Positions 8,701 through 38,589 of a DNA stretch of 64,000 nt are shown in pieces; within the stretch, counting starts at the first letter, position 1, and every line of letters begins with the position of its first letter. Origin of the DNA: Marsupella aquatica (Eukaryota; Plantae; Marchantiophyta); NCBI GenBank assembly GCA_973895155.1, contig OZ316892.1, forward strand, positions 27,179,233-27,243,232, written 5' to 3'. The notes beneath the pieces were generated by a model that did not search any database, was not told where the DNA came from, and worked only from the letters and a program-made list of their open reading frames with translations. The position numbers and the translations under genes were made by a program.

Positions 8701-11049
8701 CGCGAAAATACTCAATTTGTCACCTTTAGCAGAATCAAAGTTGGCAATAAGGCCTTCATTTGCTAATTCTTTCTCAAAATTCGTCGTTACTTCAGCAATG
8801 TGCTCGAAGTCTTTCAGTTGCGAAGTTTCATTTGGAACCGCCTGCACCACTTACAGAAGTATCAGAACCTTCGACTCAAACATCATTGGCTTTACACACA
8901 GGTCAGAGGTTCGTGAATAATTTGTGTAAGGAATTTAAAATCAAGCATCATTCAGTCCGACAATAAAATTATTCGGATGCATTGCTATTGAACTAACGGG
9001 ACAAAATGCATTTCAGATGAACGAGTCTGGACCTTGCTAAGGCTGCCAGCAATAATGGCATCAGCAAGTCTTGGCCAGAGTGTACGCCCAAATCTTGTCA
9101 TTCGCCCATCATGATTGCCCAAGATGTGCTCGTTAAGAAACTTGATGACTTGAACAATCTTTGGATACAAGCTCTCCAGCAGAGTTTCTGCACTCTGGGA
9201 TGCCAAAACCCAGATCATCATGAATAGGACGTTACGAAAACCACAACACATTTAACCACACGGGTGTGAAGATTGATTAGGTTAATGAAAGAACAATTCA
9301 AACTCTTGCTACCAATCAAACGCCTGGTGACCACATACCATTTGCTACCCTGCTGCAACCGAAGGACAAAAATCACGACTGTAATTCTTTCAGATAAATA
9401 CCTGAGTCCCAAAGCTCCATTTCAAAACACTTCTTGGTGTGGAGCCAACACCAGATCCAAGCAACAATGTAGATACTACACCCTGAGAATTCTTCAGGAG
9501 CGGACTTAAAATATGTTTGACAATCGCATCTCCAAACTTTGCAAGCCTGACATCCAGCACTCCCAGAACCTGTCCAAAGGACAAATTGTGAGTGACACAT
9601 GAAGAATTCCAAATAGAAGATCAACTACCAAGCACAATCGGATAGTGGCCGATCAAAATGCAGCCTAATAAGGCTGACACTTAAAGATGAGACAATACAG
9701 GAAAGATAACCTTTCCCTGAGAGAGTGTAGAGACGAGCACTGTGTTGATCAGCTATAAACTCTAGTCATCCTTCCAGGGCATTCATCCAAATTATCTTTA
9801 AAATACATTGATCCGTTAGCCCTAACAGATTGATAACGTCAGTCAGTCGATCCGTATAGTTCATTCCAATGCAATTCATGATATGATAATTAAGAAAGGG
9901 AAGTTCCAACTGCATCCAGGCATTTGACATTTTGATTCATGACAGAAAACTCGCCACTGTCACTCACATCCATGGCCGTCAGAATGGACGACAAATCGAC
10001 TGCCCCGGCCTCAACACCATTTACCACCATATATCACTTGTAATGTGTCGAATCACTGTCAATTCTGATTTTCTTTCGTCCAGGACAATTGCTTTCGAAA
10101 CTAGGTCGTCCAAGAGAACTAGAAGCTGTCATGCATCCAATATTAACCGGCAGATCAGATAAACGTTGTCAACTGGTATAAACAGAGTCAAAGCAGTACA
10201 AGAAAGGAGCTGTAATGTATCTTCAGCTGATGAACTTCCCTGCTGAAAACCTTCGTCAAGATGGTCAGCTGACTGCTTTGCCTACTCAAAACTAAGTAAG
10301 TCAATCTGTTACATAGGAAAACCGGGAGGACAGTACTCGCATACCGTATTGTAGTGAATCGACCACTCCTCTCGTAGCAATTCAAAGACTTTGACATCCT
10401 GATCCTGGTTTCCAGCCTCTTGTTGCCCATCCTTCAGTCCTAATTTTTCCTGCAGAATTACCATGTCTTGGGCAGCTTCAACCAGCTGACCTGGCAAAAA
10501 TTTCCTCTCCGTGGCCAAAATAAGGCTATGTAACGAAGAGATTGTCTCCACTACAACCAAAGCTTTCTCATTTTCCTTCACTTTGCTCCTTAGTCCCTGT
10601 ACTTCTGCCGCTAAATTGCAAATTTCCACATCCACCGGCGCTCTGCTAATCATTGCACCAGCTCCGCTATCACCTTCTTCAGAATGCTTGTCGTCACCAG
10701 CAATTGTCTTGGAAATGCTTTTGTCATGAGGTAAAAACCTTACAATGTCCTCACGAACAACCACTTCTTCTTTCTCACCTACAAGCTCTAACACACTTTT
10801 CAGGTGCTCAGCCACATTCTCAACATTCAAAATAGCCTGATATGATTGTGTGATTATACGTAGAAAATCTTCGTGATAGCTGCTCACTGTCCTCTGAACC
10901 TTTTTCTTAATTCCTTCGGATCGAGCCCTAATATTTTCCAGGACAGTGATCACGTCGGAGGCTGAAAGAGGAGCCGACTCATCCAGCCTCCCTGAATTAG
11001 ACCGAGGGATTACCTCCCTCAGAGTGGAATCAGCCACTGGAATACCCAT
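5736..11049 (-). CDS. ZW10: Centromere/kinetochore and Dsl1-tether protein ZW10 homologue (multi-exon; apparent frameshift in exon 2, terminal exon not found, possibly pseudogenised)
   Basis: ATG at 11049. Exons translate to PLSASDV..SEGIKKKV, VLGVLDVRLAKFGDAIVKHILSP, FGRTLWPRLADAII, VEVHFAEKRK, DVCLSTPRTALELYHASRDA, YNDSLYIAHEVL, FVDLVPLFRKMAVEVLDKQI, ILDQANGFEYTH, MNDISVQETVQLQKLL and PAWRKLKIL, collinear with plant ZW10/MIP1 as I recall it. Confidence 0.85.
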
Positions 11050-11619
11050 AACTTCACAACAGGGCAGGAATCCCCAATTCCCCCCGATCACCGACTAATT
11101 CTGCTGCAGCCAATCCAAAAACCCTTGTTAGGGAGTTCTCGCTGCATGTGCAACGAGTTCGTATGACGGTAGTGGACCGGCCCCAAGTGCTGACGTGGCC
11201 ATGATCGAGAGAACCTTGAGGGTATTCCAGAACAATGATGTTTCGCTGGACGCTGTAGCTCGCAACGAACGTCTATGCTTTATTATTAGCGACGAATCTC
11301 AGCTCGGGTATTACCTCGCCTCACCGTGCTGCTCCTCTGTGCTTTTCCTTCCTCACAAAAGCACAGTGCTGACGAATCGGTGCTCCTCTGTGCTTTTCCT
11401 TGCGCAGAGGTGACTCTGGCCTACGATTGAACGAAATTGCTATGCGGTGAGAGGACAGACGCAAATTCGTTTAGAATGATGTTATACGCTTCTGTGAAAG
11501 GGCTGTCTCTGTAAATGTGACGAATTCACGATGGTTCCTGGCAGTGGTCCAAATGGTGTCGAGACCTAAATGAATTTGGGCTTACCTGCTTTCCCGGGGA
11601 AGCTTGGGTAATCTGCTAT

Positions 11620-17533: not shown

Positions 17534-20309
17534 ATGGCTAGAACTAAAAAGCAGGTACTAAGCCAGATTAGGGTAATGCCATAGCTGATTCCCATTGTGT
17601 TCTATGTTGTTTGTATGAAGTCGCGTATCTTGTCCACAACTAAGAAGCTTGTCTTAAACCAGATTAGGGTAATATCATAGTTGAGCTGCATTATTTTATG
17701 CGTTCTTTCTTTCAAGTCCAATATGAAGTGCGACTTATAGCACAACCTCACTATTTGATGCGTGTCATTCGCTGCAGCTTCAACTCTCTCAAGGAAGTTT
17801 TCTAAAGGGGGATGATGGCACTGCAGAGCCGTCATAGTGTCATGACGGCGATGGCAGGGCAAAACCGCCCATGACCAGGCGCACATTGCAGCAAAAGAAA
17901 CTTGGTTTGTCATTGAAGGAGCTCGACATAGAGTCAGACCTTGATGAATTGAATGAGGCACCAAGAAGGCTATCGGGTCATGTGCCTGTAAATTTACCGC
18001 CCCCAAAGTCGACCACAAACTTTGGTAAGTTACCTCCTCGGCGGGTGACACGACAAACAATGTCAAAGGATGCACATATTCAAGAGCATCTTTGGGTTAC
18101 GAGGTCAAGACTCCCAACCGCAAGAGCTAAGAAGGTCCGAAGAAATAAACCTGCAAAGGAGTCTGCAAGTGAGGGCTCTCAGGAAGGCTCTGATAGTGAT
18201 GAAATTCATGCAGCACCCCGTAAGAGAGTAATTAGTTCTAGCAGTGATAGCTCTGAAGATGCTTCCAATAGCAATTCAAAGGATGAAGCACCTCCAAAAC
18301 AAACTGCATTCAGAGTTAACGCACAAAAGGTGAGGGTCACATTCAATGTAACTACGTTCATTTTGCCATCATTTGTTTTCAATATATATGCTCAATCCTA
18401 GCCACTACCCGTTGAACGCAGGCAATAGCAGTTCAGTCCAAACATGGCACTACAACAAAGGGAGATCATTATACATTGTACGCCAATGCAGTGGTGTGCA
18501 AGGTTGCACCTTGCAAAAACCGAGTCTTCAAAACCGAGAGAACTTTTGGAAACCATGTCTTCAAACAACATGGTCTAATTTTGTCCGGGACTTCGGTATC
18601 CCTATATGCCTTGGATAGTGATGATGAGCAGAGACGGCAATAGTATAATGCAAGGAGGAGGAAGCAGCCAGGTGAAGTTGTTTGTGATTCCTACTATGAA
18701 GCCAAGGGTTCCATGCGAGCTAGATGGAGTCAAGCCAAGTACATAATGAGGTAAATTTGCACTCAAGCAATTCAATTAAGGAAATTCCTATGTGCAAGTA
18801 TCCATGTACTACTCATTCTGTACTCACATGCGCTTGATATGTCACATGCAGGGCATGTATATTCAAACAGTTGGTCACAAAATTTGAACAGAACTAATTC
18901 GCACATCCCCATCCAATTGTGGGAGAAGAAGGCCTATTCCTTGTTGTATTCAAGTTTGTGATGCCCGGTCTTGGTTATCATCCATGGAACAGCCTTCTCA
19001 AGGCGACAGATTTCAAGAAATTGCTATGTCTAATCTCTTCCTGCCCTTCTACTTCCGTTGTTGGTTCATGGACTCACAAATTGTCGCAGGAAATTGAAGA
19101 AAGTTCTCATTCGCATTTGGAGAGTGACAACCTTCATGCCTTAAAATCCTCTATTGTTGTGCTTGGCACAATATTCAATGCCACTGTCACTCCGACTAAC
19201 TCTGAGCACTTAAGGCATGCATTGCTCCTGCACAGAGAGAATATTTGTAGGATGCAGTTTCATGGCTTACAAAGAAGAGAGAGGCCATCATGTGGGAGAA
19301 CAACCACGGCTGGAGTGTGTATATGAGAACAAGGCAGAGCAGGAGTACCAAGCATGGAAACATAAAGCAAAACCCAATAGCTATGCCACGACTCTACCTA
19401 ATCTAGTCACTGCATACATGGCACTCATGGGTTGCAGCGAGGCAGAGGCCAAACAACAAGTAAGTACAAATGTTCTCAATTTAGTTTGATGCATGTATGA
19501 TGTTTGTGTATGTGTTCATACCTTTTGTGCTTTTTGTGTTGCAGCCCCTTAATCGTTTGTATAGGTTGTTTAATTCTATTTATTGCTTGTACATGTCCAG
19601 GCCGCAACGGATAGTGTTTGGATTGACACTTCAGATGATGGTGCTGTGCCTAAGGAGCGGAGAACAAAGCCATTACCCAAAGTCAAGAGGAAATTTGTCT
19701 CATTGACCAAATTGGTTTAACGGAAGAAGTCATTTCAGCAGAGACCAACAAATGTGGTGCCCAATTCTGGCAAACCTGTATCACCGGCAGCTATTCCTAT
19801 GTGCAGTAATGATTTTGTGGATGTAACAAAGGAGACGCCCACTTCTCACAAACCTGTTCAATCTAAAAGTCTTCCTATTTTTGATGAATGTGATGTCCAG
19901 TGGCAACTCCCAGATGACCCTGCAACAAAATTGTTTATGCAGACGCTTGATGAATAGGAGCGCGAGCGAGCAGAGTACTACCAAAGGAAGAAACATCAGC
20001 CTATATCTCCCGCACCAGATGACATCGTATCTGCAAGCACGGAAGATGAATTCGCAGTAGAAGAAGCAGACAATTGTGTCAAACTCGGAGGAAGTGCAAG
20101 CGCCAGACCCACCTCCCACTTTAACAAGTGTAGATGATCTTACTTCAACACAAGTGTTGTGTGGGCATGGATCATTTGCAGGAATAACCTTGTCACAATA
20201 TAGTACTCCCCTCCCAGATGATACCGAAAGCAATGGGTCTCTATCCAAGAGGGCACAGCCGCAATTGTGGTCAATTGACACCGATGGTAGTCACATTGGA
20301 TTTGCGTGA
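17534..20309 (+). pseudogene. Decayed multi-exon gene of unknown function with MARTKKQ micro-exon and C2H2-like zinc finger
   Basis: Exon 17534-17554 (MARTKKQ|GT) splices in frame to 17778 and ORF 17871. Exon 18422 encodes CKVAPCKNRVFKTERTFGNHVFKQH (C-x4-C-x13-H-x4-H). Several in-frame TAG/TAA stops are consistent with CAG/CAA transitions. Confidence 0.55.
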
Positions 20310-20729
20310 GCCATTGGCAGATGATCAGCTGAATGACAACTATAACTTATCTTCCCTAGTCAATATTTTTCTAGAATCGATACATTTATTAGTTTTGTAC
20401 ACTAAATAACTAATTAATATAAATTGTACACAAAACAAAAAAATTCAATTAAAAAAAGCATTCCTTTCAAGAGTACCGAAGCTTTTGTTATTTTGTCCTT
20501 GATCTCATCGTGCTTAATTGTGTTTTGATTCGCATTCACCAGCGGACATAGATATTGCAATTGCATGAACTTCAGTGGCGACAACGCTTCTACCGAGACC
20601 CCCAGGTCCTGATTTTCTAATTATAAGATACTATAACAATGACTATCCGGCAATGTGAAGTTTAGCCGGTGAAATTTGATTCCACTCTGCAACATCTCCA
20701 CTCCTTCATTGCACTAGTGGAAAATAGTG

Positions 20730-21350
20730 TCCTTAATGACTAGAATGAGGACTGAAAAATGAGTCATATGTACCAATATATGACTAGAGCTTTTTTGTCA
20801 TACCTGCCTCGTCTTTTAGGACAGTCAATTAAGACAAATGACTAAAACTCTCACCAGTCATTTATGGTAGTCCTAAATGACACAATATTTCTGAAATGAC
20901 ATGTTATCCTAAATGACTGAATGAACGGCCGTCAGTCATTTAGGCATGTCTTTAATGACACATATTTAAACAAATCATATTACAACACATGGCAACTACG
21001 CACGGTTGTCATTATATGTCATTTCAGACATGTCATAAATGACACAATAATAAATCATTTAAGGTGTCATTTAGTGTGTCATTGAAGGTGTTGTACATGG
21101 TGTCATTAAAAATGTCATACAAGGTGTCATACAAGGTGTCATTGAGAGTGTCATATAAGGTGTCATTGAGAGTCATTGAGGGTGTCATACAAGGTGTCAT
21201 TGAGGGTGTCATACATAGTATCATATAGGGTGCCATACAGGATGTCATATAGGGTGTCATTGAGGGTGTCATACAAGGTGTTATTGAGGGTGTCATACAT
21301 GGTATCATTGAGGGTGTCATACAGGGTGTTTTTAAGTAATGTCATTTGGA
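20730..21350. repeat. CACTA subterminal repeats, including a 12-bp tandem array (GTGTCATACAAG/GTGTCATTGAGG) at ~21060-21330
   Basis: Directly visible periodicity next to the CACTA terminus. Confidence 0.85.
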
Positions 21351-21436
21351 ATGTATCTAAGAAGAGCTCATAGTTATATTCAAAATCACATACAATGAAT
21401 CCACTTAAAACCCTAAACAAAGACATCACTTTGTGC

Positions 21437-21580
21437 ATCATCATTGTATTCAGAAATTCACACTCCAACATTCACAAGCTCTAATATAGAATAATTGAAA
21501 AAACAGAAATCATCATTGTATTCAGAAATTCATATTCCAACATTCACAAGCTCTAGTATAGAACAATTGAAAAAACAGAA
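21437..21580. repeat. Tandem duplication, 72-bp unit x2
   Basis: ATCATCATTGTATTCAGAAATTCA...GAAAAAACAGAA at 21437 and 21509. Confidence 0.9.
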
Positions 21581-21675
21581 GTCTTTATGATGAAGTGATA
21601 GAAAGTACACATTTTTCACTCGCATGAGTGAAACAATGGTAACCAAAATATTCAAAAATTCTTTGTTCTACATGA

Positions 21676-24123
21676 TCAGAGAAAATGTTCAACACTTCCC
21701 AAGAAACCTAGCATTCCACAATGTACATTCATTCCTAACACATTCCGTAAACAGAGTTGTTTCTCTTCTTTGTTGGGCATTGGCAATGCTGCATCACCAC
21801 AATACACTGCCTTAACTGATACTCGCACCCAAGGACTCTCAATCATGACACAATGAAATTTATCCTCTCCTGGTAACCCTGTCACTTCACCTCTAGCAAC
21901 AACTGTAGAGCGATCCACAACGCTTCGTACTTCTACAGCATCTCCTTTTGAAAACTGCCACACAAAATTGTTAGGACAAAATACTGTCTTGTAGTACTGA
22001 TTTGGGCATATCATCAATTTAAGAACATAAGCCAACTGAAAACAAATTCACCTTTGCTACTGGATTTGGGGAGAGAACTGGTCCTCATTCACTAGGTGAG
22101 ATAGTGATAGGGGTTGATTTCTTGAATCTCTTTGAAGGCCTAGGTGGTGTAGCCTCTTGTTCCTGAATTGCATTTGACACTATCTGTTCATCTGTGACAG
22201 CAATCTCATCACTCTCACCATTACCAATGCTCCTTTGTACAACGCAAGGTTCCTGCAGTGCTCCCAAATTTGCTTCTCCCATACTTGGCTTTGGCTTCTG
22301 CCTTGTTAAAGTATCTGATTTCTCTCGTTGTGATACAGGATTCTCCCCTGAAGAAGGTACCACAAAACCAAACAATGAATGCTTAAAAAACTTCATTCTA
22401 AATTGAAAAATAAACTATTGCATATGTAATATGTTTAGAGTATAAGTTTGTATGTTCTTACCATCACCATCACCTGAGAAAGTAAGAGAACGTTTTCTAC
22501 TACTACCTTTAGGCTCAACCACCACCTTAGTAGCAATTGCATTTGATAATTGCATATGAAACTGATTCTGTTGATTTTGTGCAATGAAAGAGGTCATCAT
22601 AGATGTCAAATTGTCCACTTTGAACTCAAGCTTGGTTAAATTCTCCATAGACTGTTCAAGCTTGAGTAATCGAGCTGGTTCCTCAATTGTAGTTTCCCTG
22701 GACAATGGAGTCTACATACACAAACACACCATACAATGTCAATCATCAATGATAATTTGAACATCATGGATAACTGATAATCAAAATTGAATATATACAC
22801 AGGTTTTCATTACATACCGCTGATCCATGTGCAGACTGATCCAATTCCAACAAAACTACTGCCTCGATGTTCACCACTGCCCATAGATGGACTAATCTGC
22901 ACTGGGGGGACTGGACTACTAGACACAAGTTTTGATATAATAGGGCTCATCATTCCTTTTGCTTTCTGGAAACACATAATCACATTCAAAGCAATTAGAA
23001 TATTAATGAGAACTCATCATGTCATTGTTTATTCCTATACTAGATAAACACTTCAATTCAAATGACAATCTAGACCTGCAGTGAGATGGACCATCTGAAG
23101 ATTCTTACCAATCTTTTTTCTGCTCCAGCAGCCCCTCCTCTTCCAAAATGCTCTTTGTTCACCACTTCTGCCCTCCTTGCTTTCATCACAGCACTCCTTG
23201 CAAGCAAAGCAGGACTATCAAAATGATCCACCAGTCGTGCCCATTTCAATGGGTCAACATATTGAGGTCTTGGTTTGGAGCGATCACGTTTACATACATC
23301 CTTCCAATAAATATTTAGTTTGTGACGTTCTCTTTTCAATAACGTCCGATAGTGACTAATAAATTTCTTGTCAGACACTGACTGCTTATCTAGATACTCC
23401 CAATCTGCCTCCATCAATTTCTGCACATCCTCAATTATGTTTGGATCTTGTTTGTTCCAATCAGGTTCTGATACATCAAAAAGCCTCAAGACATTGGCAC
23501 GTAGCTCCTCCATCCAATATGGTTTATTAGGATGAGAATCATCAATATCATTGTCATGAATCTGAAAAAAACACCACAAATGATAGTCATCAACATTGGG
23601 AATGAAACAAACACCCAATTGTTTCTGAGTACACGAATTATAGGCCACAATATGATATGTGCAATGAAAATCTTACCGTTATCAATTTTCCCTTCTTATT
23701 GTCAGCCCTTCTTGCACTACCGGTTCTCTGAAATTGTTTCTTGGCTTGCCTAGATTCCCTATGTTGCTCTGTTGCAGTCTTTCTTCCCTCTACATACACA
23801 ATGAGCATCCAATATTGATCATCCACAATTGCAAAATGAGGGACAAGAAATATTACAATATAATACCTAGGAGGCTTCATTGAAATTGACTTACCTGAAT
23901 CCTGACTGGATGTCATTACTGCAGAGTACCCAGATTTTCCAATCGATGTTGATGGAACCACCACTATACACATGCAAACCACTGAAGTTTTGAGTCCAAC
24001 ATTCATATAGATCAACATTGAAAAATACATTGAAAATCTTTGAAATTACTTACATTCAAATAGCTGGCCAGTCACAGGGTCTTTGTAACATTGCACCATG
24101 CCACTCATGGAAGGTCCAACCTT
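21676..24123 (-). pseudogene. TnpA/TNP1-like CACTA accessory gene of element A (5'-truncated, frameshifted last exon)
   Basis: Exon 23070-23560 KRERHKL..W..PRPQYVDPLKWARLVDHF..RS..MKARR..HFGRGG is Transposase_24-like. Last exon VVARGEV..KFHCVMI..VRVSV..AALPMP is Transposase_23-like. Both are homologous to the element B TnpA. Confidence 0.75.
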
Positions 24124-24990
24124 CACTAGTAGAAACCGGGGCAATTTAGACCATACCTTATAGGACTATGCCCACTAAGTCCTTTTTCCATACTTAAAAT
24201 GACTCGCACCCATTGCACCGGTTTTGTTGAAGACTAGAAAAGACTATGAGAGTTTTATGGTTCACTAAAAGACTATGAGAAGTAACCTTGCTACTTTGTG
24301 AAGGGTGAATAGTCTAGCACATCATGGGTAATGTTCACTCTATGTTGAGGAGGGGTAATTCTCCTTCATCTTTGAGCCGAAAGCACCGACGTCTATCGAG
24401 TGCCAAAGAACTGCTGGAGATCGAGCGAATTCACACTCTCAAATGTGGGTCGTGTCAAATTGTTTCCTCCATTGATGGCAGCCTTCTGTGAGATTGATTT
24501 ATACTGTGTGGCTATCTGGGAGTTTTGTTGACTCATTTGACACCGATACTCCCGTGATTTCCTCATACATAGTGCCACTGCCCCCCCGCATTGTGTTCAA
24601 TCCCTATAGCTTATAGCTGCACCACTCTTGGTGGCCCTTGCTCATGCCTTGGTTTTTTTTTCTTTTTCCCATTACAGTATACACCCCCTTCTTACTAATC
24701 AGGTGGATTAATTTAGTACTAGACAATGCTTTGACACTTTACACTTACACTATGCTGACCTACTGCGCCTTCTAGTGCTTATTCCCTGTTTTACATGTCA
24801 CGACTATTGTATGTGATTCAAATGCATGAAATGTTGTTGCAGATCTCCTTTGGTGAATCATAGCCACAATTAAAATTGAGGTGTTGGTGGAGAAATTGTA
24901 TTAGGGGATCAGTTTTGTGTGTGGGCTCAACATACCAAAAGTATGTGTGCTCTGCATCCTTGTGTGGCCATTCCAATTCATTGCAGTAGC

Positions 24991-25134
24991 AAATGCCTTT
25001 GTACCTTAAATGCTAAATATATTTTACTTTCTGTGCAGTCTGCTAAATTGTAGAGTCTATCTAAATGCCTTTGTACCTTAAATGCTAAATATATTTTACT
25101 TTCTGTGCAGTCTGCTAAATTGTAGAGTCTATCT
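24991..25134. repeat. Perfect tandem duplication, 72-bp unit x2, just upstream of the PHD ORF
   Basis: AAATGCCTTTGTACC...GAGTCTATCT at 24991 and 25063; each unit contains an acceptor-like TTTCTGTGCAG. Confidence 0.95.
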
Positions 25135-25145
25135 CATGCGCAGGC

Positions 25146-25826
25146 ATGGCACGGCCTAAAATTCAAGCCAAAAAGCATGTGACAGAGGTGAGAAACACAG
25201 GTGTACTTGGGGCAGATGCTACTAACTTCTCTGCAAGTCAGATTTTCCAGAAGGCAGCTCATTGTTGTGCCATTTGTGACGATGGTGGGGGCCTGGTCAT
25301 TTGTGAGGGCCCTTGCATGAGGCATTTCCACCTCAACCCGGAGTCTGACCTTGCTGCAGAAAACAACTGTCCAGGGGTGGGCCTCCCGTCAACACACCAG
25401 GGAGACTGGATGTGCACTGATTGTTTGGAGAAGCAAGCTAAGTGTGCACAGTGTGGGAAGTTGGGGTCCTATGAGGGCTCTGTTGATGCTGCAGCAAATG
25501 TTAGGAAATGTCCAGACCGTTTTTGTGTGAGATTTTTCTGTTTTGAGTGTTTGCCTGCTCATGCCACAGCTTGCCCACTTCATAGGTGCAAGGCATGTGG
25601 TGAGCATGATGATGACTACTGGACTGACATAGTCCACTGTGCTAGGTGTCCCACTATGTGGCACTATCATTGCCTGAAAGATCATCAAGCAGAGGGTTAT
25701 GCTTGTGACAGAGAAATCTATGATCACTCTGCACATGGTGTTGATCGATGGATATTTTATTGTCATCGCCATGCCATTGATCCTACCTCGCGCACTCCTG
25801 TGAGAGATCACATATCTTGGCTGTGA
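25146..25826 (+). CDS. Stand-alone EDM2-like composite PHD-finger protein (CACTA cargo)
   Basis: 226-aa intronless ORF: CAICDDGG.L.ICEGPCMRHFH...WMCTDC..K..KCAQCGKLGS...VRKC...C..FFC..C...CPLHRCKAC...CARCPT.WH..CL...IFYCHRHAIDPTSRTPVRDHI. This is collinear with the Arabidopsis EDM2 PHD region as I recall it (CAICDNGG..CEGSCLRSFH; CPLHKC; CRRCPKSYHRKCL; YCQEHEIDEELLTPVRDHV). Confidence 0.85.
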   Translation: MARPKIQAKKHVTEVRNTGVLGADATNFSASQIFQKAAHCCAICDDGGGLVICEGPCMRHFHLNPESDLAAENNCPGVGLPSTHQGDWMCTDCLEKQAKCAQCGKLGSYEGSVDAAANVRKCPDRFCVRFFCFECLPAHATACPLHRCKACGEHDDDYWTDIVHCARCPTMWHYHCLKDHQAEGYACDREIYDHSAHGVDRWIFYCHRHAIDPTSRTPVRDHISWL

Positions 25827-26364
25827 AGCTGAACATTGTACATGCACAGTGCACCTGATGTGGATGTACTATTTTTTGAGATTGCAGAGATTCCAATTTT
25901 GAAAAGGAGTTGGGTAGGCGAGTTTATATAGGCAGCACTTATCTTGTGCTCTGGCGTCAGTGGCTGGGTACATGCCTATACAAACTTATCCTTACAAGCC
26001 TTCTTGGAAGTATTTAGGCTGAGTGGTCATTTTCATTTTTATAAACACTTTCATCAGACTGCTAAATTAAAACAGGACTTCTAAGTTGTAAGCGTATAAA
26101 TTATCAAGCATGCAATTAATCAAATTGCCCTATAAGTTTGTCATTTGAATGTATCCTCCTTTACAACAAAATATGTATGTGCCATGACAAGTTGGTTGCA
26201 CTTCATTTCACCACGGATATGGATTTTGTAGTATATATTCAAACAATGTCCTGCATCCGTGCAGGTGCCTAGTACGTATTGTTCACATATCCCTTGTACC
26301 TATCAAAATCGGACCTGAGCACCAGTGGGCCAGATCAACTCAAAAAGCAGGAATTTTGAAGAGT

Positions 26365-26778
26365 ATGTTGGCTGAGGAGACGAAGCAACCAACCCCCATT
26401 CTGAAAGGGCTGAGCATGGTATTTGTGGAGGCGGGAATTGGAGAGGTTAAGTGCAAAGTGTACAAGTCCACAGTGCTTGACCTAGGTGGGACAGTGGAGG
26501 AGAATATAACAGAGGACACCACTCATGTCATTACTAAGTCATATCCCAAAGCCTGCCGCAAGTTTGGGAAGGGAGACATTCGCTTTTATGTCATGTCCCA
26601 TAATGTGTTTGTGGTTTCATATGCTTGGCTTGTGGAATCAGTAGCAGCTGGGAAGCGTCAAAACCCAATGGACTATGATCTTTTTGAGGCCTGGCCACGG
26701 AAGGGTCAGGATCCTTACAGAGAGGACTATGAGACAACAAGTGAGGAATGGGTCATTAGCGATTCTGAATCAGAGTGA
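26365..26778 (+). CDS. Stand-alone BRCT-domain protein resembling the N-terminal BRCT of plant DNA polymerase lambda (CACTA cargo)
   Basis: ILKGLSMVFV..G....KVYKSTVLDLGGTV......TTHVI...VVSYAWLVESVAAGKRQNPMDY has the BRCT hallmarks GG, THVI and WxxxS, followed by an acidic tail. The frame is open upstream to a possible acceptor at 26264. Confidence 0.8.
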   Translation: MLAEETKQPTPILKGLSMVFVEAGIGEVKCKVYKSTVLDLGGTVEENITEDTTHVITKSYPKACRKFGKGDIRFYVMSHNVFVVSYAWLVESVAAGKRQNPMDYDLFEAWPRKGQDPYREDYETTSEEWVISDSESE

Positions 26779-27211
26779 GGAGTAGTAGCATCAGTTTGGA
26801 CACAAGTTTTTTTGTATAAATCAGATCATTGAAATAAATGTGATCTTTGAACTAATGTACCTTGTTATGGTTGGTGGCAATTGGGCTTATTTTACTGTTG
26901 GCGGATTGTTGTTTCCTGCTGCCTGGGGGTGTCACTGTAAACGTACATGCAACGGCGGTACATTTGAGGACAGCGGAGGAGGTGGTGACACCCTCCAACA
27001 TTTAGGAATTTTGTGTCATTCACTTGACAATAGGTACACTACTTGCGAACCTGTTTTTTTCTTTTGGGGTGGTTTAGGGTTTGTGAGAATTTAGTACACG
27101 TTATGTTAACTCTTTTGGCAGATACAGTCAGGGATATATGGAACACAAATACCACCATTAGGCATCCTTGTTCACTGCTGTCCATGACTGCAGAGCTCCC
27201 AGCCTGTTACA

Positions 27212-30200
27212 ATGCACCCTGGTCACCACCCTCCCCAGACCCAGCCCAGGGCACAGGCACTGCCTTTGCATCATCCCACAAGGATATCACGCCATGATAA
27301 TAAGCTTTGGCAGCGTGAAAGGTTACGAACCAGACTTTCAGGAGCCAGTAGGATGAGATGTCCTTGTGCAATCTGCCAAGGATCCCGTACCAGGGGTCTG
27401 AATGAGGTTTGGCGGCATATCGCGGTTCATGGAAGAGATCCACGACATCGAGTTTGGAATGATCCTGCAGAGGAAGATTCTTCCGACGAGGAGTGGAGGT
27501 TAGAATTTGATGTTGCCAATGCTGCAAGACGGGCAAGTGAGGTTCTGCCTGGTGCATTTGAAAATGTTGTAGCTGGTCTCTATGGGTTGTCAGCTCTCCA
27601 ACGGGATGGTGCTCAGGCAGCACCACGTGACGAAGGAATTCATGTGGAAGAGATGGTGAGAGACATCTTCCAAGACTTGGATGCATTTCATGATGGGCTG
27701 GACAACGAAGAGGATACGGCTGCAGATGCAAGTGTGCCCCCTATCAAAGAGCCTCTTGATGAGTTTGAGATAGGGCAGGAAACCCCTGGGCATGATGGGA
27801 TGTTTGGCTCTCCCCTGCAAATACAGGAAGGCAGGAAGTCTTTGTACCCCGGTAGCAAATGTTCTAAACTGGGATTTGTCATCATGTTCCTGAACATTTG
27901 CGGCAACCACAATGTCCCCAACGTTTTGGTTTCTGAGTTGTTGGCATTCTTGCGAACAACTATGCTACTAGATGGTAATATTTTGCCCAAGAACATGTAC
28001 GAGGCAAAAAGATGCATATCTAATCTTGGATTGAACTATGATTCGATCCATGCCTGTCCTGATGGGCATGTTCTTTTCAGAAAGGAGTATAAAGAATCGT
28101 TGACATGCCCTAAGTGTGGGAAGCACAGGTATCGGAACTCAGGAAAGTCTATGGTTCCCGCCAAGGTACTTCGTCATTTTCCACTCATTCCCAGACTTCA
28201 GCGGATGTTCAGAAGCCGTGCCATCTCGGAGATGATGACTTGGGCAACTGACAAGAAAAGTGATGATGGCCTACAACGACATGCTGCAGATTCAAGGCAA
28301 TGGAAACTCATAGATGAGATGTATCCCGAATTTGCTGCTGAGCCGAGGAATGTCAGACTTGGGCTGTCATTGGATGGGGTAAACCCATTTGGAGACAAGA
28401 ACAACAAATTTTCGTGCTGGCATGTAACTATTTTGAATTATAACCTTCCTCCTTGGATGACTACAAAGCGATTTTTTGTTCTGATGGTCCTACTGATACC
28501 AGGGCCAGACAGTGCTGTATCTGCCAACATAGATGTGTTTTTGGCTCCCCTAGTGGAGGAATTGAGAAAGCTTTGGGAGGAAGGAGTTCTCACATATGAT
28601 GTCCTACAGAGGCTTGGGAGGTTAAACCCATTCATCCTTAGAGCCATTGTCATTCTGACTATAGCTGACTACCCAGCCCATGGGATGATATCAGGCCAAA
28701 CAACAAAAGGATATTGTGCTTGTACTATCTGTGGGCGCAATGTCACCAGTGAGTACTCCAGAGCCCTGCCAAAAGTGATATACATGGGCCATCGTCGTTT
28801 TCTGAAGGTAGATCACCCTTACAGAGAAAGACAGGCACTGATTGCACACTTTGGCAATGAGATTGAGCAACGTGGACCCCCGACACGAGTGACCAAAGAG
28901 GAGATCAGGCAGTGGGGAGCACTAAGGGATGACTATATCAAACGAGGGGGCAGGGAAGATGGAGTGAGTGATCCAATAAAGCGATATGGTGTAAAAAGAC
29001 TGAGCATATTGGACTTGGAGCTCAAGTACTGGAGGGTAAGCCTCTTGGAGTTGATGCTAATTGGGATACATGTTTTGGTTCAGAGCATGTGCATTCATTT
29101 CGAAGAGAGAGACTAAACTTGAGGCATTTCCTGACGCTTTTGCATTGCAACGATGCAGGAGTTTGAGCCAAGCAAACATAACATTGATGTTATGCACATT
29201 GAAAAGAATATTTGTGAGAGTCTACTCAGATTCTTGTGTGGAGAGAAAGACACTGGTTCAGTGAGATTGGATCTTGAACAGAGGGGAATGAAACCCCATC
29301 TTTGGTTGAGGCCACATGCCCACAGAGCTGATGTGCTCTTGAAGTACCAAGCGCCCTATGTTCTGACAGACATAGAGTGGGAACTATTTGTGCAGAGGTT
29401 GAGTTCTTTGAAGGTTCCTTCAAACTATGGCAGTGCTTTCAAGAAGCATATCATGACTAGAAAGCTTGGTAGTATGAAAAGCCATGACTACCATATGTTG
29501 ATCCAACAGGTGTTGCCTTTATGCTTGAGGGGCTTGTTGCAGAAGCCTGTTCGTACTGTGATCATGCGACTCAGTGATGTGTTTCGTCGTATTTGTGTGA
29601 AGGTTTGGGATGAAACACACTTCCCACAACTGACAAAAGATGTCGCTCAGGTGCTGTGTGACCTAGAGATTTATTTTCCTCCCGCATTTTTTGATGTCAT
29701 GACCCACCTACTTGTCCATGTTGTGGAAGAGCTACACCAATTTGGGCCTGTGAGTGCTCGTTGGTTGTACCCTTTGGAATGGTACATGAAGCTACTCAAA
29801 GGTCACGTGAGAACATATTACAAACCTGAAGCAAGCATGGCTAAAGGTTACATCAAGGATGAGACTCTGGGATTTCTGACCGAATACATAGCACAATATG
29901 AGCATGTGAAGACCAGGGTGTGGAATTCTGATGAGGAGGAAGGGGTGATAGGTGAAGTACTGGAAGGGGCTGCAACCACAAAGAACCTGACCATATCTAT
30001 GAGAGACTTGGCACATGACTTTGTATTGCACAACACTGTGGTGATGGAACCCTGGATACAGTGAGTGCATACATGTGCTATAATCCAGTTCATGAGCTTA
30101 AATGTTGTGTTCGTGTGGTTTTCTCCTTCAGCCTGTTCATGTTTACCCAAGCTAATGCTGTGTGGTTGTTCGTTCAGGGAGTATGAGTCATTGAAGGCGG

Positions 30201-30943
30201 CCCATCCCACTGCAGGAACAACTTTTCCAGGTTTCATGGAGTGGATCAGAGTGGCAATTAGAGAGCATCACGAGACCCACCCAGACATGGATGCAGATGT
30301 TTACCTACTGTCTAATGCCCCTAGCCTGAAAGTGAAGACTTACAAACGGATGAGAGCATATGGGAATCACTTCCGAGTGAAGGATGGTGACAGTGCCTAC
30401 AGGGTGATGAATGACTACGGGCTCATCACTGTATTTGAGCAACAGAGCCACAATCACGACAGGGCCTGGATGGAGATGGGATATGTGGGAGAATTAGTTG
30501 ACATATGGGCTCTGGACTATGGGGCGGTGTCCAGTCCTGTGATTCTTATGAAAGGTTCATGGGTGCGGCAGGATTGGCTTGGTAACAGGGCTACCATGAA
30601 GAGAGACAACGACGGTTTCTTGCTGGCCAATTTCAGAGGGAAATTGCCCGAATGGTCTGAGCCATTTGTGTTTCCTAGTCAGGTGGAGCAAGCTTTCTTC
30701 CTGGATGTGGAAGACTCCCCAGGTTGGCGTGTAGTGTGTCATAAACAGGCCAGGCAACGTCGGATGGAAGGATCAAACCTTGAGTTTCATTTACACTCTC
30801 ATAGTGCCTTTGATCGTCGGCGTTCAGACCAAGTGCCTGTAGTTCATGATAGCGGGGACTTCATTCCTGTGACAAGGGTAGATGCATTTGCTGAAGGAGG
30901 CGAATTCAGAGATGCAGATGCCAACAGTGTGCCTGTGCCATGA
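27212..30943 (+). CDS. CACTA transposase (TnpD/TNP2), three exons, apparently intact
   Basis: Exons 27212-29035, 29159-30060 and 30178-30943 splice in frame. RCPCAIC (Transpos_assoc), IHACPDG..CPKCG..RY, PRNVRLGLSLDGVNPFG, NYNLPPW, DYPA, HNIDVMHIEKN, MKSHDYH, FFDVMTHLLVH (DUF4218) and EPFVFPSQVEQAFF (DUF4216) are all present. Confidence 0.95.
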
Positions 30944-31099: not shown

Positions 31100-34000
31100 A
31101 TGGAACAGAGTGACACAGAGATGTGTGAGTATGAAAGGAAAGCTATGGAACAACGAGCATACGTGAAAGCCAAAATCGCAGAATTGGATCTGGAAAAGGA
31201 TGTGGCTGAATTGTAAGGGAACGATTCTCAACTACACCCCTCCGCTGAGTTTGTGTGACATGAATAGTTCAATGTGGCACTGAAATTGTGACTGTATTCT
31301 CATATTGGAATGTCGCAGAGCCACAGCATTTTCAAAGAAACAAAAGGAGTACGCAAGAAGGGTGACCAGCACTATCTCTGGGCCTGTGCGTCGGAGTGAC
31401 AGGTTGAGCAAGAAGGTCGTACCTACAATGGCAGAATGTGGAGATGACATTGATGCTGCACAGGTGGGTGCAGACACTAGACAAGAAGATGCAGATGATG
31501 AGTATTTTCCAGAGGAAATGGATGAGGATGGGGGTTATGAAGATGAATACATTGCAGAGCAGCCCCAAAAGAAACATGTAAGTAGTTTTCCCAACAAGGT
31601 TTTGAGTTAAAAACTCTTGTTTAGAGGTTTCATATGTTCAGTACTACACATATGTACCTTGCTTAGTTCCTGACATTGTAGTTGGTGATGTGATGCAGCG
31701 TCCTGCCAGTTCTGTTTTGCCTTCGAAGCCTGTGCATGCACCATACCAGCAGGGGGGGCTGACCTCTGATCAAGGTTGGCAAGGTGGTAGTAGTGGTAGA
31801 TCCCAGGCTGGTGCCCAATACTATGGCAGGGGGCAAGCTCTAGGTTATGCCCGTGGTAGAGGCAGAGCAGGTCCAAACCCACAATCTCGTGGGTATGGAT
31901 GTCCACCTCAACCATGGGGATGTGAGTATATATCTATATGCCAGTTCTTTGTGAAGGCATGGCACTCCTGAATTTCAGACTGCATATCAATTTTTGACAT
32001 TGTTTGGGATGTATTGGATTCAGACAACATGAAATTCTGTCCACCTGCCATTGCATGCAGATTCTGCCCAACCTGATTGGGCAAATGCTAGTAATGATCA
32101 GTTCCAATGTCCATAAGGACAGACATGGGTTGAACCAGGTTGGGAGGATGGTGGTGGGTCGTGGAATGAACAAGGTTGGGAAGGTGGTGAAGGTAATTGG
32201 CAGGGATATCAAAATTCAGTACCTACAAACGCTGGAAGAGGAGCAGGTAATGTCTGATCTTGTCAGCAATGGAAGAACTCATTATATGTGGAGTCCATTC
32301 ACGTGGGGGGGACTCTGCACATGTATAATGATAGAAAATGTATGTGTGTAGGTTGGACAGTCGAACCATCGACTCAAGTATTCACTAATGCCCCTATGCA
32401 GATGCAGCACAGAAGGGGGACAGGTATGTCGGTGAATGTTCAATTGTTTTCCTACAGTTTGTACTTAGTTTTCAGTACATATGTTTGCACACACATACCT
32501 AGAAAGTGACATCATCCGGCCCCTGTACTAGGCTGGACAGGTGGTCCAGGGTCGCAACAATTTCAGAGTGCAGTCCCTGCACAGGCATCTACAGGCAGAG
32601 CTACAGGTATGTATGTTTGAAGAATTTTTCTTGAAGTGAAGCATTGAATGTTGCCGTCATCCATTCTGCTATATGTAGTTCTCAAGCATGAATGGCATTG
32701 TATTTTCCCAGGTGGCTTCAGAACCCCAGGTAGGGTGAATGAAGGGGTGGCCAATACAACGCCCAGTACTACCGAGAGTAGTGCACGAGGGGAGGTGACA
32801 AAGAAAGGGAACGTAAAGTTGAATGAGAGACAATGGGTGGATGCTGAGTGTCCTCGCAAGAACCGATGGCATGCTGATTTGAAAGTTGAAGTATTGCGTT
32901 GGTTAGATGTGAGTGTTATTAATTTTAAAAAACAGCATCCAAAAGATTGGAAGACTGTATGTGAAAATGTTGCTGCCAAATGGAATTATGTGGGCAGTGA
33001 TGATGGCGTGGACATAGGTTGCCTAGAGAGTACAGCAGGTAAAATTATCAAGCAAGAGAGGTGGAGAATGCATAAGGCTTGGAAGGAAGGTGGGGAGAAG
33101 CCAGATATGCCTCCACCAGCCAGTTGTGATGATAAAGTGTGGGCAAGGTTAGTAGCTTATTTTGTAATAGATGCTTCAAAAAAGAAGAGTTCACAGATGA
33201 CCGAGGCCAGGTTGAGTGTTCAGAACCCTAATCTGACAGGAAGGACCGGCACTGCACCGACAGCTAAGCGTTTGGTAAGAATGAATGGCCTAGCTATGTA
33301 ATTTATGCTACACTATGTACTATTTTTTAGTGTAAACCCATACATGTAAACTTTGTTTTTTAGTGTACGTTCCCTGAATATTGATCGATAACTTGTGTTT
33401 GCCATGCATGTGCAGAAAGCCCAATTGGGGCAAAGCCCTGCAAAAGAAGAGTTGAGGGCTGAAATTGTGAACACCCGGGCTCAAGAGGGTGCATCTGAAT
33501 CCTCCAAGCATGTAAGTTATATGAGTTCTGATTGGTAATTGAATGACCTGCGTTGAATTTCAGGTGTACACTGTATATAACATTGATTGTGCATATATTG
33601 CCCAACATTTCATATGGAGTGATTGAACCTATACCCCTGTGTCATGTAGGGAGGTGGATCTTCACTTACAGAGATAAGTGGTCGTTTGAAGGCTGTCGAA
33701 ACATGTCTTCCAGAGATCAATGAACGTTTGAATTCATTGACTGACTTGTTCCATGTGAATTTCAAGACATTAATGGAAGCTGTTGTGTCGGTGAGAGATA
33801 AAATTGATTCCAATTCTGTAGGAGTTCCACCATCACCACTTGAGGTGGCAAAGTCGATGCACTCTTCTGGCATGCCAACGACATGTAGGCTTGAAGGTAA
33901 GGCCTTTACAACTGTGTGGGATATGATTATTAAATGTATAGTTTGAATTAACATTGTTTGTTGAATGTGTTATTTTCAGTAACATATATTGTGGTTGTTG

Positions 34001-34806
34001 TGTCCATAGAGAATAAGACAGGTGCTACAGAGAAGAAGTATGAGAACCTGGCAAATACTCGCTGTAATTTAGAGGCAACAAAGTTGCAGTCTATACAAGC
34101 AACTTGTTTGACAGAGGGCAGTCAACCATGTTTGGATGAGGATGACATTGGCAAGGGAGTGGATGATATCAATGTTGGGGCAAATGAGGATATCAGCAAG
34201 CATGACAATGATACCATTGAGCCAGATTCATGCTATGTAGATCTTGACTCCATTGCAGAGATAAATGATTTGCAGAATGTATCATTCTCAATGACAGGTG
34301 TGCCTCTTGTTGAGATAAATCCAACCAAAGAGTTAGTTGGTATGACACTCCCAGGTGATGAACCTGCTACTGTGACAGTCCTAACAGAGGAACCTACTGA
34401 GCCTAGCTTCACTACTGTGAAGAGAGGAAGCATGCGCACACGAGGCAAGTCTGCTGGTGGGAGCAGAGCCACGTCAAAGGTTTCATACAAACCTCCAAGA
34501 ACAGTGCTGGCAGAAAGATCTAAGGTGGAAGTGGGGAAAGCACCTAATGTTGAGGGACAAAGTGGCTTGTTAGCTGTTGATGAGAGTGGAACACGAGTAG
34601 GATTTGCCAGAGTGCAGGTTGGTTCCACAACGTTCCATGGCAAGAGGATTCCCCCAGGTTATTCAGTAGTGTTAGTCACATTACTAGTGAAACCTAAAGC
34701 TGTCCTTCCCATTCCAAACACAAATGATGATCCTCCTCAAAAGACACTTGGAGATGCTGCAGGTTCTTTGGTATTATGGCCAAGCAAGTTCATAGAGGAT
34801 CCATAA
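31100..34806 (+). CDS. TnpA/TNP1-like CACTA accessory gene of element B (multi-exon; exact splicing not fully resolved)
   Basis: Starts MEQSDTEMCEYERK, followed by many small GT-AG exons. Contains a Transposase_24-like block (KQERWRMHKAW..PP..CDDKVWARLVAYF..SSQMTEAR) and a Transposase_23-like end (FHGKRIP..LPIP..TLGDAAGSLVLWP). Confidence 0.8.
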
Positions 34807-35304
34807 CAATGTCATGCCATTATTTGTTTGTAGTGTGAGTCATGTTATGTAGATTTTAGATGTCAAGAAGCAGTACAAGAATCATGTCCTCTTGGAGATT
34901 CATAGTATCATGCATGTGCTTTCAGTTATCTCATCCTACAGTCATCAATTACGAGTTCCTGTTTTGTCTAAATTACATTGATCACATTGTAAACTATTCC
35001 ATTGGAATTCAAATGATCTTCATTTTTTAGCAAGATTGTGATTGTGTTTAATTTTTATGAATGTTTTATGTAGGATCTGCTTATATGATGCTTTGTTTCA
35101 TGTAGATGTCATTCATGCTATGTTCATTTATTGTATTCAATGTGTTATATTTCTAAAGTTAGAACATCAGGTTTCTATGTATTGTAATGTCGAGTGCTCT
35201 CTCTCCTTATGAACTGTCCCTCTGTGTTCATTAGTCATGGTTATAACTTGCATGTGAACCTTATTAGTTATAAACATGAGTATATAGAGTCCCAAATGGT
35301 TCTG

Positions 35305-35645
35305 TTGTGTGACGCGGGCCAGGGTCTCCATTGGTCTCTCCTGTGACACTAAATAGTCACACGCTAGTCGTTGTTGAATGCGGGTAAGTCATGTATGTGA
35401 CTTACGATGTGACTCGCTGAAGTCATATTGCAGTCACGTCGAAACAAGGCTAGACTCCACAATAAAGTCACAGATCAGTCACAAATGGGTATCAAGCAAG
35501 TTGCAAAGCCCAGTATCAATAGTGACTTCCATTTTTTGGTCTCAACTTTTGCAACTCCAAGGGTCACAGCGTGGGTCAAGTCACGTTGAGTCACAATGAA
35601 GTCACATGAGCCAAAATGAGTCATATATTGCGGTCTCAGTTCACC
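35305..35645. repeat. Right subterminal repeats of CACTA B (GTCAC/GTGAC motifs)
   Basis: Many AGTCAC/GTGAC motifs in both orientations leading up to ...TTCTTCTAGTG. Confidence 0.8.
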
Positions 35646-35661
35646 TCGAATTCTTCTAGTG

Positions 35662-36488: not shown

Positions 36489-38589
36489 TGAACCAGAAGT
36501 GGTGGACCTCCCACCACGTGCACGTCCAAACTCGCTTCTTAGCCTTGAAACAAGTCAAAACTTGCACTAACACAAAATGTTGGGGCAAATTCTCTCCGAC
36601 TATACTCCTTGTCGTTAGCGACCCCTCCCATACGAAGCCGCACTTGCCCTCATTAGCATAACAGTTGCTCAACGGTCTTTACTATCTGCACAAGTAACCA
36701 ACCAATTGGTAAGAACCCGTCTTGATCTCAGAACACCCAAGATCATTGTCTTGCATCACTCTTAACAATTGTTAGTAAGTAGGTCAGCGGATAGAGCCTC
36801 CCAGGCCCGCATGGCCTTGCCATAAGCTGAAACTAAGGTCGGCATCATTGTTCGTCCGGAATAGTCTATCTATCGGATGTCGCCCAAGCTTCCCCACTTT
36901 ATATCCGTCAATGGCTGACCGCCCTGCCTCCAGGACATGCCCATGGCCCAAACTCAATTTGTCACAAACTAGTAGTAACACGCCGGGATCATTCAGTTTC
37001 TAGATCTTATCCACCTCTCTGTGAAACCGGGTTCCGCTCAACCTCTCACCATGCATTGGGACCAGATCTCAATGGCAGCCCCCAGAGTCTACTTGGTTCT
37101 ACCTCTCCAACATCAGGTCCCCATGGGAACCAAATGTGGTTTGGTTACTGTTTGACTTCGGATTGGCAAGAGGGACTCCCCCCATTGCAAGCCTCAAAAC
37201 CAAAACCATCCAATGCACAATCAAAGAGCACCATGAGGTAGATTTCTTCATTATCTTTCCAACGAGCCCAAGAACTCCCCCAACAGAGATCCGGTCGTCG
37301 CGTTATGCTTGTTTTTGCTTCAAAACTTGAAACAACGTATCTTCATCGATCGTGATCAGCTCGAGCTCAAACTTGAGAGGACCACTCCCCTCATATATGC
37401 TTCTGGGGACCTGCCACCCCCGGACCAGCTTTGGTCCCCTATCTTTGGCCCCCTACCCGAGGGTCCGTGGGCCCCGCCTCTTAGCTCGAAACGAAGATAA
37501 TCGAAAACCTTTTGTAACTTGGCCTTGAGCACAAATTGTGGCATAGGGGGCTAAAAGTTGCGGCCCTAAACCCGCTCTGGTCCAGGCAACCCCCTCTTGG
37601 TCCATCGATGTGCGACGACTCTAATCGAGTCTAAATCGGCCATAACTTTTGGCCCCTAGGTCCGTTGGCCAAAAAATATGCGGCCCATGATCGGGCTCAT
37701 GTGGGGCTTCTTGGGCCCCTATGGTGATCCATTGGAAAAATAGTTCATTTTTCCATGATTGGCAATGGACCCAAACTACAAGTATGCGGCTTGAGTTGGC
37801 CATAATTTTTGGCCACTGGGTCCGTTGGCCGAGAAATATGTGGCCCCATGATCGGGCTCATGTGGGGCTTCTTGGGCCCCTATGGTGATCCGTTGGAAAA
37901 ATAGTTCATTTTTCCATAATTGGCAATGGACCCAATAGAGTTATTTGAAGCGCGCTTTTCTCAAGCCTTGTCCTTGCTCTTACTAGCCTCCTCTTTGTTA
38001 GTTGCATCCCTAATGGCCATGATGGTAGCAAATCTAAGAGGGGCTCAACGCTGGAGTTAGGCAACGTCGGAGCAATTATGAGTAGGTGAAAGTTGTATTC
38101 GCGACTTGTACCCCCTTTTTTTAAATGGTTGATGTCTACGTCAACCGAATGGGTACCATACCACACGCCTAGACCAATTGGCGTCTAGAAGGTGATGTAA
38201 GGTAACAAGTGGTCCGTCCTATAAGGTAGACACGGACCTAGTTGAAGTGCGCATCTCAAGTCTTAGAGAAATTCAACTTATCTAACAAATGAGTTAGATG
38301 TCAGTATGCTTGGGCAAGCCGACTCCTTGTCCAACAAACCCTTCAATCTTCCCCGGAGATAACTCCCACAGGTTTGATCAAACTTGCTTACAATGTAATG
38401 CAAGTACCAAATAGCTTAACCGTAAGGATAGCAAAGTGGTTGCCCAACAACCACTAATTGGTGCAGGTTTGAGAACACTCTCGAGAGGCTAAGTGTGGTG
38501 AAACCAGGATACAACTTGCTTAGGTAATTGCAATCGCCCTACTTCAATAAGGGGGTGTTAAAAACTATTTCTTCCCTATGATTAATTCA
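36489..38589 (-). repeat. G2 3' LTR (~2.1 kb)
   Basis: TGAA...TTCA termini; adjacent CTTAACCCTCCTCT is a PPT on the minus strand; 36675-38385 is highly similar to 54794-56975; contains ~160-bp subrepeats. Confidence 0.7.

Follow-up and report, generated by a model that had tools for sequence, protein, structure and literature searches.

A BRCT-domain accessory gene in a high-copy CACTA transposon of a liverwort, probably the remaining half of a twin-BRCT gene

Introduction

CACTA/EnSpm elements include the maize En/Spm type. The accessory genes described for DNA transposons mostly counter silencing (SET, TET/JBP, VANC). For the EnSpm group, the relevant sections of two reports describe the Plavaka accessory genes PAG1-3 and EnSpm elements that carry TET/JBP (10.1101/2025.02.11.637652, PMC12730594), and the word BRCT is absent from the main text of both. 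Neither a transposon that codes for a BRCT protein nor a CACTA element with PHD accessory proteins turned up in our own literature search; subscription journals, Repbase and supplements, which lay beyond its scope, may contain one.

BRCT domains are modules through which DNA-repair proteins dock, and DNA polymerase lambda has one. According to the portions of two papers that treat the interaction, human Pol lambda docks on Ku70/80 via helix 1 of its BRCT domain (PMC12056208, PMC12910108); R57 and L60 are given as most important for Ku binding (PMC12056208), and R55 is called crucial (PMC12910108).

The window, that is, the whole 64,000-nucleotide stretch of Marsupella aquatica DNA analysed here, holds an element that is like CACTA/EnSpm elements in its CACTA..TAGTG ends, its TnpD-type transposase, its TnpA-like second gene and its possession of extra accessory genes. 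An initial annotation had reported a stand-alone BRCT protein in it, similar to the BRCT of Pol lambda, and had proposed that the protein may steer or block end-joining at the element's own breaks.

Results

The CACTA element and its genes

The features of the element are as follows.

24124 to 24787, plus strand: CACTA 5' end, with terminal CACTAG and GACT-core subterminal repeats; sits inside a minus-strand TnpA-like gene
24785 to 24787, no strand: junction whose two sides overlap by 3 bases; contigs from both sides continue in other sequence (X1, X2), and there are loose ends in X2 and X3
25146 to 25826, plus strand: NSD-type PHD-finger cassette gene of three PHD-like units with its own stop (PF23011, PF23004 and PF22908, below curated cut-offs)
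26265 to 26358, plus strand: start of a putative exon that follows an AG acceptor; the BRCT frame is open here but has no ATG; left of the probable deletion junction
26357 to 26358, no strand: probable deletion point with a 2-base overlap, at least 121 bases missing relative to deep contigs
26365 to 26778, plus strand: BRCT domain (about 26392 to 26690) and acidic Thr/Ser tail, equal to the second half of twin-BRCT proteins
27212 to 30943, plus strand: CACTA TnpD-type transposase, with exons 27212 to 29035, 29159 to 30060 and 30178 to 30943; start provisional
31284 to 34806, plus strand: multi-exon TnpA/Transposase_24-like gene, bounds approximate (PF03004, E=0.0035 on 32648 to 33298, below cut-off)
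35300 to 35661, plus strand: subterminal repeats of the 3' side, with an AGTC/GACT core, and a terminal TAGTG; adjoins an LTR-retroelement reverse transcriptase

Both hallmarks of the CACTA/EnSpm group are present. The CACTA..TAGTG termini at 24124 and 35661 are alike in 10 of their first 12 bases, and the transposase has the combination of Transposase_21 (E=8.6e-70), DUF4218 and DUF4216, the last scoring below its cut-off. The transposase is uninterrupted, its exons being stop-free and compatible in phase.

The PHD cassette has its top Atlas cluster at 0.91, in Streptophyta, and the matches of the element's genes point to a land-plant host. Presumably, the end of the cassette is similar to the composite PHD of EDM2 in plants, a reader with links to introns that contain heterochromatin, and the cassette may be an anti-silencing accessory gene. 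Just upstream of it lies a perfect 72-base tandem duplication (24991-25134). An X5 contig skips 85 bases there, with 10 other letters, and the duplication is therefore probably recent.

The copy in the window is rearranged. No 3-base target-site duplication surrounds it (CTT on the left flank, AAG on the right), and its two flanks do not come from the same element: to the left lies a TnpA-like gene, to the right a reverse transcriptase. Because the flanks are mismatched and belong to different elements, the ends at 24124 and 35661 do not represent one intact insertion. Loose contig ends at 24123 and at 24785/24787 bound the 5' end; an internal deletion or a recombination in this copy would account for the junction at 24785-87.

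A second CACTA element occupies 20712-24123 on the minus strand, with an end at 20712 and an array of 12-base repeats at 21019-21362; its multi-exon TnpA-like gene is cut at 24123 by the 5' end at 24124. At 17535-20310 (plus strand) is a multi-exon gene with no confident Pfam match, possibly a transposon accessory gene or remnant. Several LTR-retroelement remnants lie at 35.6-64 kb, and two long repeat copies, about 91-95% alike and with internal units of 150-160 bases, are probably LTRs (36675-38385 and 54794-56975). Likely host gene exons were seen at 1931-2503 (plus strand) and at 10312-11094 (minus strand), the latter with a weak Zw10_N match (E=0.003).

The BRCT reading frame

The BRCT frame lies between the PHD frame and the transposase. 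It is open from 26188 to 26778 on the plus strand, with an AG acceptor at 26263-64 that may serve as a splice site, a first ATG at 26365 and a stop at 26776-78. It matches PF00533 with E=7.1e-8 (33 bits, cut-off 21.3) and PF16589 with 27.5 bits (cut-off 27.3), and the conserved Gly-Gly, Thr-His and Trp core places it in the BRCT domain superfamily. Pfam found no Pol X catalytic domains in this frame or in the scanned family proteins, and no first BRCT domain lies upstream of the frame in the window. Several points of the initial annotation are thus borne out: the domain itself, the acidic Ser/Thr-containing tail, the lack of a polymerase domain and the location inside a cut-and-paste transposon. 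Since the PHD, BRCT and transposase frames all end in stop codons of their own, a fusion of BRCT to either neighbour is not favoured; leader exons may yet be shared.

The BRCT gene belongs to a high-copy transposon family. Of the words sampled from 25000-27300, 64-76% occur in five public runs, which represent three labelled organisms, and all 30 bins of that interval were covered in the four runs compared. Contigs of X1, with depths of 1641-2060, tile 25880-26946 with zero or one substitution; at a depth of about 1800 they match 26357-26615 and 26686-26946 with zero or one difference. From 26943 to 27278, a contig of X5 leads on into the transposase. The PHD, BRCT and transposase genes all have coverage by deep public contigs that are nearly identical to the window. 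Depth over the BRCT stretch is of the same order as that of its neighbours; such depth does not equal copy number, and a contig does not represent a single molecule.

In near copies, no indel falls inside the frame among the variants listed for X1 or X4 (two of two runs). The outcomes that the initial annotation had named as refuting, lack of a BRCT profile match and a disrupted frame, thus did not appear in these data. An equally deep X1 subfamily (depth 1767) keeps the frame, and so do diverged subfamilies, as seen from a loose end at 26513 in four of four runs. By our own reading, two of the nine listed base variants in the frame are silent, and the variants fall mostly in the tail; among near copies there is consequently no sign of purifying selection in these figures, which come from too few sites for a selection test.

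A probable deletion in this copy

For two X1 contigs (depths 1641 and 1799) and a pair of X5 contigs, agreement with the window reaches only to 26358 or sets in at 26357; beyond these points they carry 77-78 and 121 bases unlike the window. A deletion in this copy is therefore likely, with a 2-base overlap as the simple reading of the break. The 30 extra bases listed at 26357/8 are stop-free in the BRCT frame, and three of their ten codons, compared by hand, agree with the linker of the relative P0002. We consider it likely, judging from these extra bases and from the relatives described below, that the missing stretch held a first BRCT domain and most of a linker; its length is at least 121 bases, and a complete domain with its linker would take up about 420-465.

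Breaks at 26357/8 are present among the listed pieces of two of four runs (X1 and X5), and X4 has no loose end there among the matches listed. Because the listed matches of X2 and X3 include no piece from this place, and those of X4 no loose end, the short form may exist in more copies than this one. The present copy of the BRCT gene is likely to be defective.

Twin-BRCT relatives

Against 1.84 billion representatives, a HMMER scan returned 18 matches, seven of which (ranks 1-6 and 8) form one family that carries no informative names. Counting family matches from the scan, cluster members and one further match, there are six full-length relative clusters (P0002, P0003, P0004, P0005, P0021 and P0023), and all six have two BRCT domains. 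These proteins are 264-321 amino acids long, intronless or in a single frame. Compared with their second halves, tail included, the window frame has an identity of 57% to P0002 and of 58% to P0023. Three apparent single-domain relatives look partial: P0001 begins within the domain, P0008 within the linker, and P0006 owes its short form to a stop in the contig L001. The window frame is thus probably the C-terminal half of a twin-BRCT protein, cut by the deletion in this copy. The initial description of a stand-alone single BRCT is accurate for the window frame, which has one domain, but does not extend to the full-length relatives.

The acidic C-termini of P0001, P0002, P0004, P0021 and P0023 share a Thr-x-Glu/Thr-Thr-Ser-Glu pattern that is absent in P0003 and P0005. 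Presumably, these tails are similar to the CK2 sites on which FHA proteins dock in repair scaffolds.

Of seven locus scans, which covered metagenomes, viral contigs and prokaryote genomes, six came back empty. The exception gave L001, a JGI metagenome contig of 1404 bases with an intronless twin-BRCT gene at 1-940 that has one internal stop. Its cluster relative P0021 is intact. The roughly 460 bases of flank in L001 gave no transposase match. Because the loci of relatives gave no readable transposon context, transposon carriage is demonstrated only for the transposon family of the window. A word-index search with 'longer' lengths returned no relatives, whereas the HMMER scan did find twin-domain ones, and an Atlas search with the BRCT sequence returned only generic BRCT clusters, below 0.9.

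Two other accounts of the family bear on these data. One is that the twin-BRCT proteins are ordinary host genes, and that only the transposon family of the window took half of one. That no transposon context could be read for the relatives would fit such an account, but the family clusters lack UniRef and NCBI nr accessions as well as informative gene names, L001 is intronless and broken by a stop as for a repeat copy, and the extra bases at 26357/8 sit in deep, repeat-like contigs. We regard this account as very improbable.

The other account is that the BRCT gene is passive cargo of the Pack-CACTA type, a captured host fragment that is amplified with the element and has no function. Broken copies do exist, namely the window copy and L001 with its internal stop, and silent changes are few among the nine listed variants. 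On the other hand, the twin form is not part of any named host gene among the 18 matches; open frames of full length persist with invariant BRCT core residues at identities of 23-58%; and diverged subfamilies retain the frame. Passive cargo is accordingly improbable in our view, and we think it quite probable that the BRCT gene is under selection as a protein.

Origin of the BRCT domain

The remaining 11 of the 18 matches comprise five Pol lambda-like proteins, three that we read as BRCA1-like, one TOPBP1, one unnamed multi-BRCT protein, and one without a BRCT domain (P0014, match 14 of 18), which was dropped as a chance match. The three best single-stretch scores outside the family are all Pol lambda-like. 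With profiles of the first and second domains of the family, the algal Pol lambda-like P0011 has the top score of the 19 domains from outside (48.7 and 61.0 bits, against 24.2 and 47.7 for the best non-Pol domain), in a reference set that was picked by the query itself but in whose picking the first-domain profile played no part.

The Pol lambda-like label varies in its backing. One of the five such references has a named full-length cluster member (P0025, in the P0016 cluster, with Pol X domains), and P0011 matches this named Pol lambda with E=2e-11. In the PDB, human Pol lambda is the only match to P0011 and a weak one (E=0.2), and the best match to P0018 is TOPBP1. In the PDB sequence ranking, human Pol lambda stands below Rtt107, BRCA1 and REV1.

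A first tree of 34 rows did not resolve, and a long BRCA1-like row fell beside the window domain. For a second tree of 25 rows, nine were dropped (seven long-branch outside domains and the partial P0001 and P0008); plant REV1, XRCC1 and ligase IV domains were outside its sampling. There the BRCA1-like domains group with TOPBP1 in a starred clade of their own (96/91), and the order of the family and the Pol lambda-like domains stays unresolved. AU tests reject no grouping (p=0.44 for Pol lambda-like, 0.13 for BRCA1-like and 0.14 for a third). The second tree sets BRCA1-like and TOPBP1 domains apart but does not settle descent from Pol lambda; the likeness to Pol lambda stands in that Pol lambda-like domains are the best-scoring outside relatives. 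On these scores and profiles, the Pol lambda BRCT is the favoured origin of the family domain, and its capture and duplication by the transposon would be a reasonably probable course of events.

The Ku-binding helix and predicted structure

At the positions of R55, R57, L60 and F61 of Pol lambda, with numbering read from alignment spacing, the window domain has E, K, V and Y; its Ku-binding helix thus appears only partly kept. Among eight second domains of the family, position 57 is basic in five, position 60 is hydrophobic in three, and both hold in two. Because only those two of eight have both residues acceptable, the Ku surface is not a constant of the family. R57 is kept in four of the five Pol lambda-like references.

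These residues bear on the proposal that the single-BRCT protein is itself the functional form, which would act as a decoy by binding Ku in competition with Pol lambda at excision breaks. In favour of it, the window frame includes an ATG of its own (26365), and position 57 in it is still basic, position 60 hydrophobic and position 61 aromatic. In the part of the human work that concerns us, the isolated Pol lambda BRCT reaches breaks through Ku, and gap filling drops with a catalytically dead Pol lambda, though not when its R57 is mutated (PMC12056208). Against a decoy of this kind, position 55, whose arginine is the residue emphasized in passages of the second paper (PMC12910108), is acidic in the window; the six full-length clusters are all twin-domain; deep contigs contain extra sequence at 26357/8; and this copy is rearranged, with its 24785-87 junction and no target duplication. 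We think a single-domain decoy unlikely.

A model of P0002, built on an alignment of 11 rows, so shallow that packing can be missed, has two well-folded BRCT domains on a helical linker without fixed orientation (mean pLDDT 72, pTM 0.44). Solved BRCT pairs align to it with a TM of at most 0.33 by query length. A Foldseek list was headed by a chain of 9cq3, an NHEJ complex, which we take to be the ligase IV BRCT pair, with TM 0.26, 14% identity and an rmsd of 25. The prediction is thus of two domains strung apart like beads along the linker, and not of a packed pair that binds phosphopeptides. The Ser/Thr-Gly pocket motif, which we assume to mark phosphopeptide-reading BRCTs, is absent from the window domain. 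A single-sequence fold reached a pLDDT of 41 and gave no usable model.

The structure also bears on a different kind of function, in which the BRCT protein acts together with the PHD cassette on chromatin, through anti-silencing, transcript processing or target choice, and not on end joining. The two genes are adjacent in the same element, the Ku motif is degenerate, and EnSpm-group elements, in the sections of the reports that deal with them, carry chromatin-acting accessory genes (SET, TET/JBP; 10.1101/2025.02.11.637652, PMC12730594). However, the likely donor is a repair protein, the BRCT and PHD genes have separate stops, and the P0002 model lacks a packed tandem pair of the kind that reads phospho-histones, as its pTM and TM values indicate. 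A chromatin role is, in our judgement, somewhat unlikely.

Discussion

The reading that we prefer is as follows. A CACTA transposon lineage would have taken up the Pol lambda BRCT and then duplicated it. In intact elements, the resulting twin-BRCT protein would be a non-catalytic, two-armed adaptor, and this adaptor would engage host break-repair proteins at the element's own cuts. The explanation as a whole, consisting of a CACTA BRCT gene that is half of a twin family, a deletion, descent from Pol lambda and a break-repair adaptor, is put forward tentatively, at slightly less than even confidence. By itself, a role as adaptor or decoy at transposition breaks is a possibility that we would rate a little lower again, and the partner need not be Ku. 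Because the window frame is apparently half of a twin protein and the Ku residues are only partly kept, the steering or blocking of end-joining, as the initial annotation had it, is no more than plausible. The boldest version is that a captured and doubled Pol lambda BRCT docks on the end-joining complex and controls the repair of the element's own excision and insertion breaks, which would make it the first repair adaptor to be encoded by a transposon, with a PHD chromatin reader beside it in the element; we consider this version unlikely on present sequence evidence.

If true, a conserved BRCT protein would represent a different strategy for a transposon, namely managing the host response to transposition breaks. 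Repair-pathway choice by plant cut-and-paste elements would then become testable, and the protein would be a possible tool for biasing end-joining outcomes. Even without a repair function, there would be an unnamed twin-BRCT family in a high-copy element.

Finally, we compare the protein and its element with known systems. With the N-terminal BRCT of Pol lambda, which matches best outside the family in single-domain scores and in profiles alike, the protein shares 33% identity to an algal Pol lambda-like BRCT and a full-domain match to human 2jw5. It differs from Pol lambda in having no polymerase domain, a doubled BRCT and an acidic tail in place of the catalytic core, and R55, R57 and L60 are retained only in part. 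The C-terminal BRCT pair of DNA ligase IV also has two domains with a long linker, but the likeness is one of layout, and an origin from ligase IV has no sequence support (rank 27 in the PDB sequence ranking). The packed tandem readers of BRCA1, TOPBP1 and Rtt107 share the presence of two repeats and are the top PDB sequence matches; the family has a longer linker and no predicted packing, and the BRCA1-like and TOPBP1 domains form a tree clade of their own. As for the accessory genes described in the EnSpm group, these act on chromatin or DNA marks and not on repair proteins, and the window element has a PHD cassette and a BRCT protein instead. The element is of a known kind; the BRCT gene that it carries is a real accessory gene, and one of a new type.
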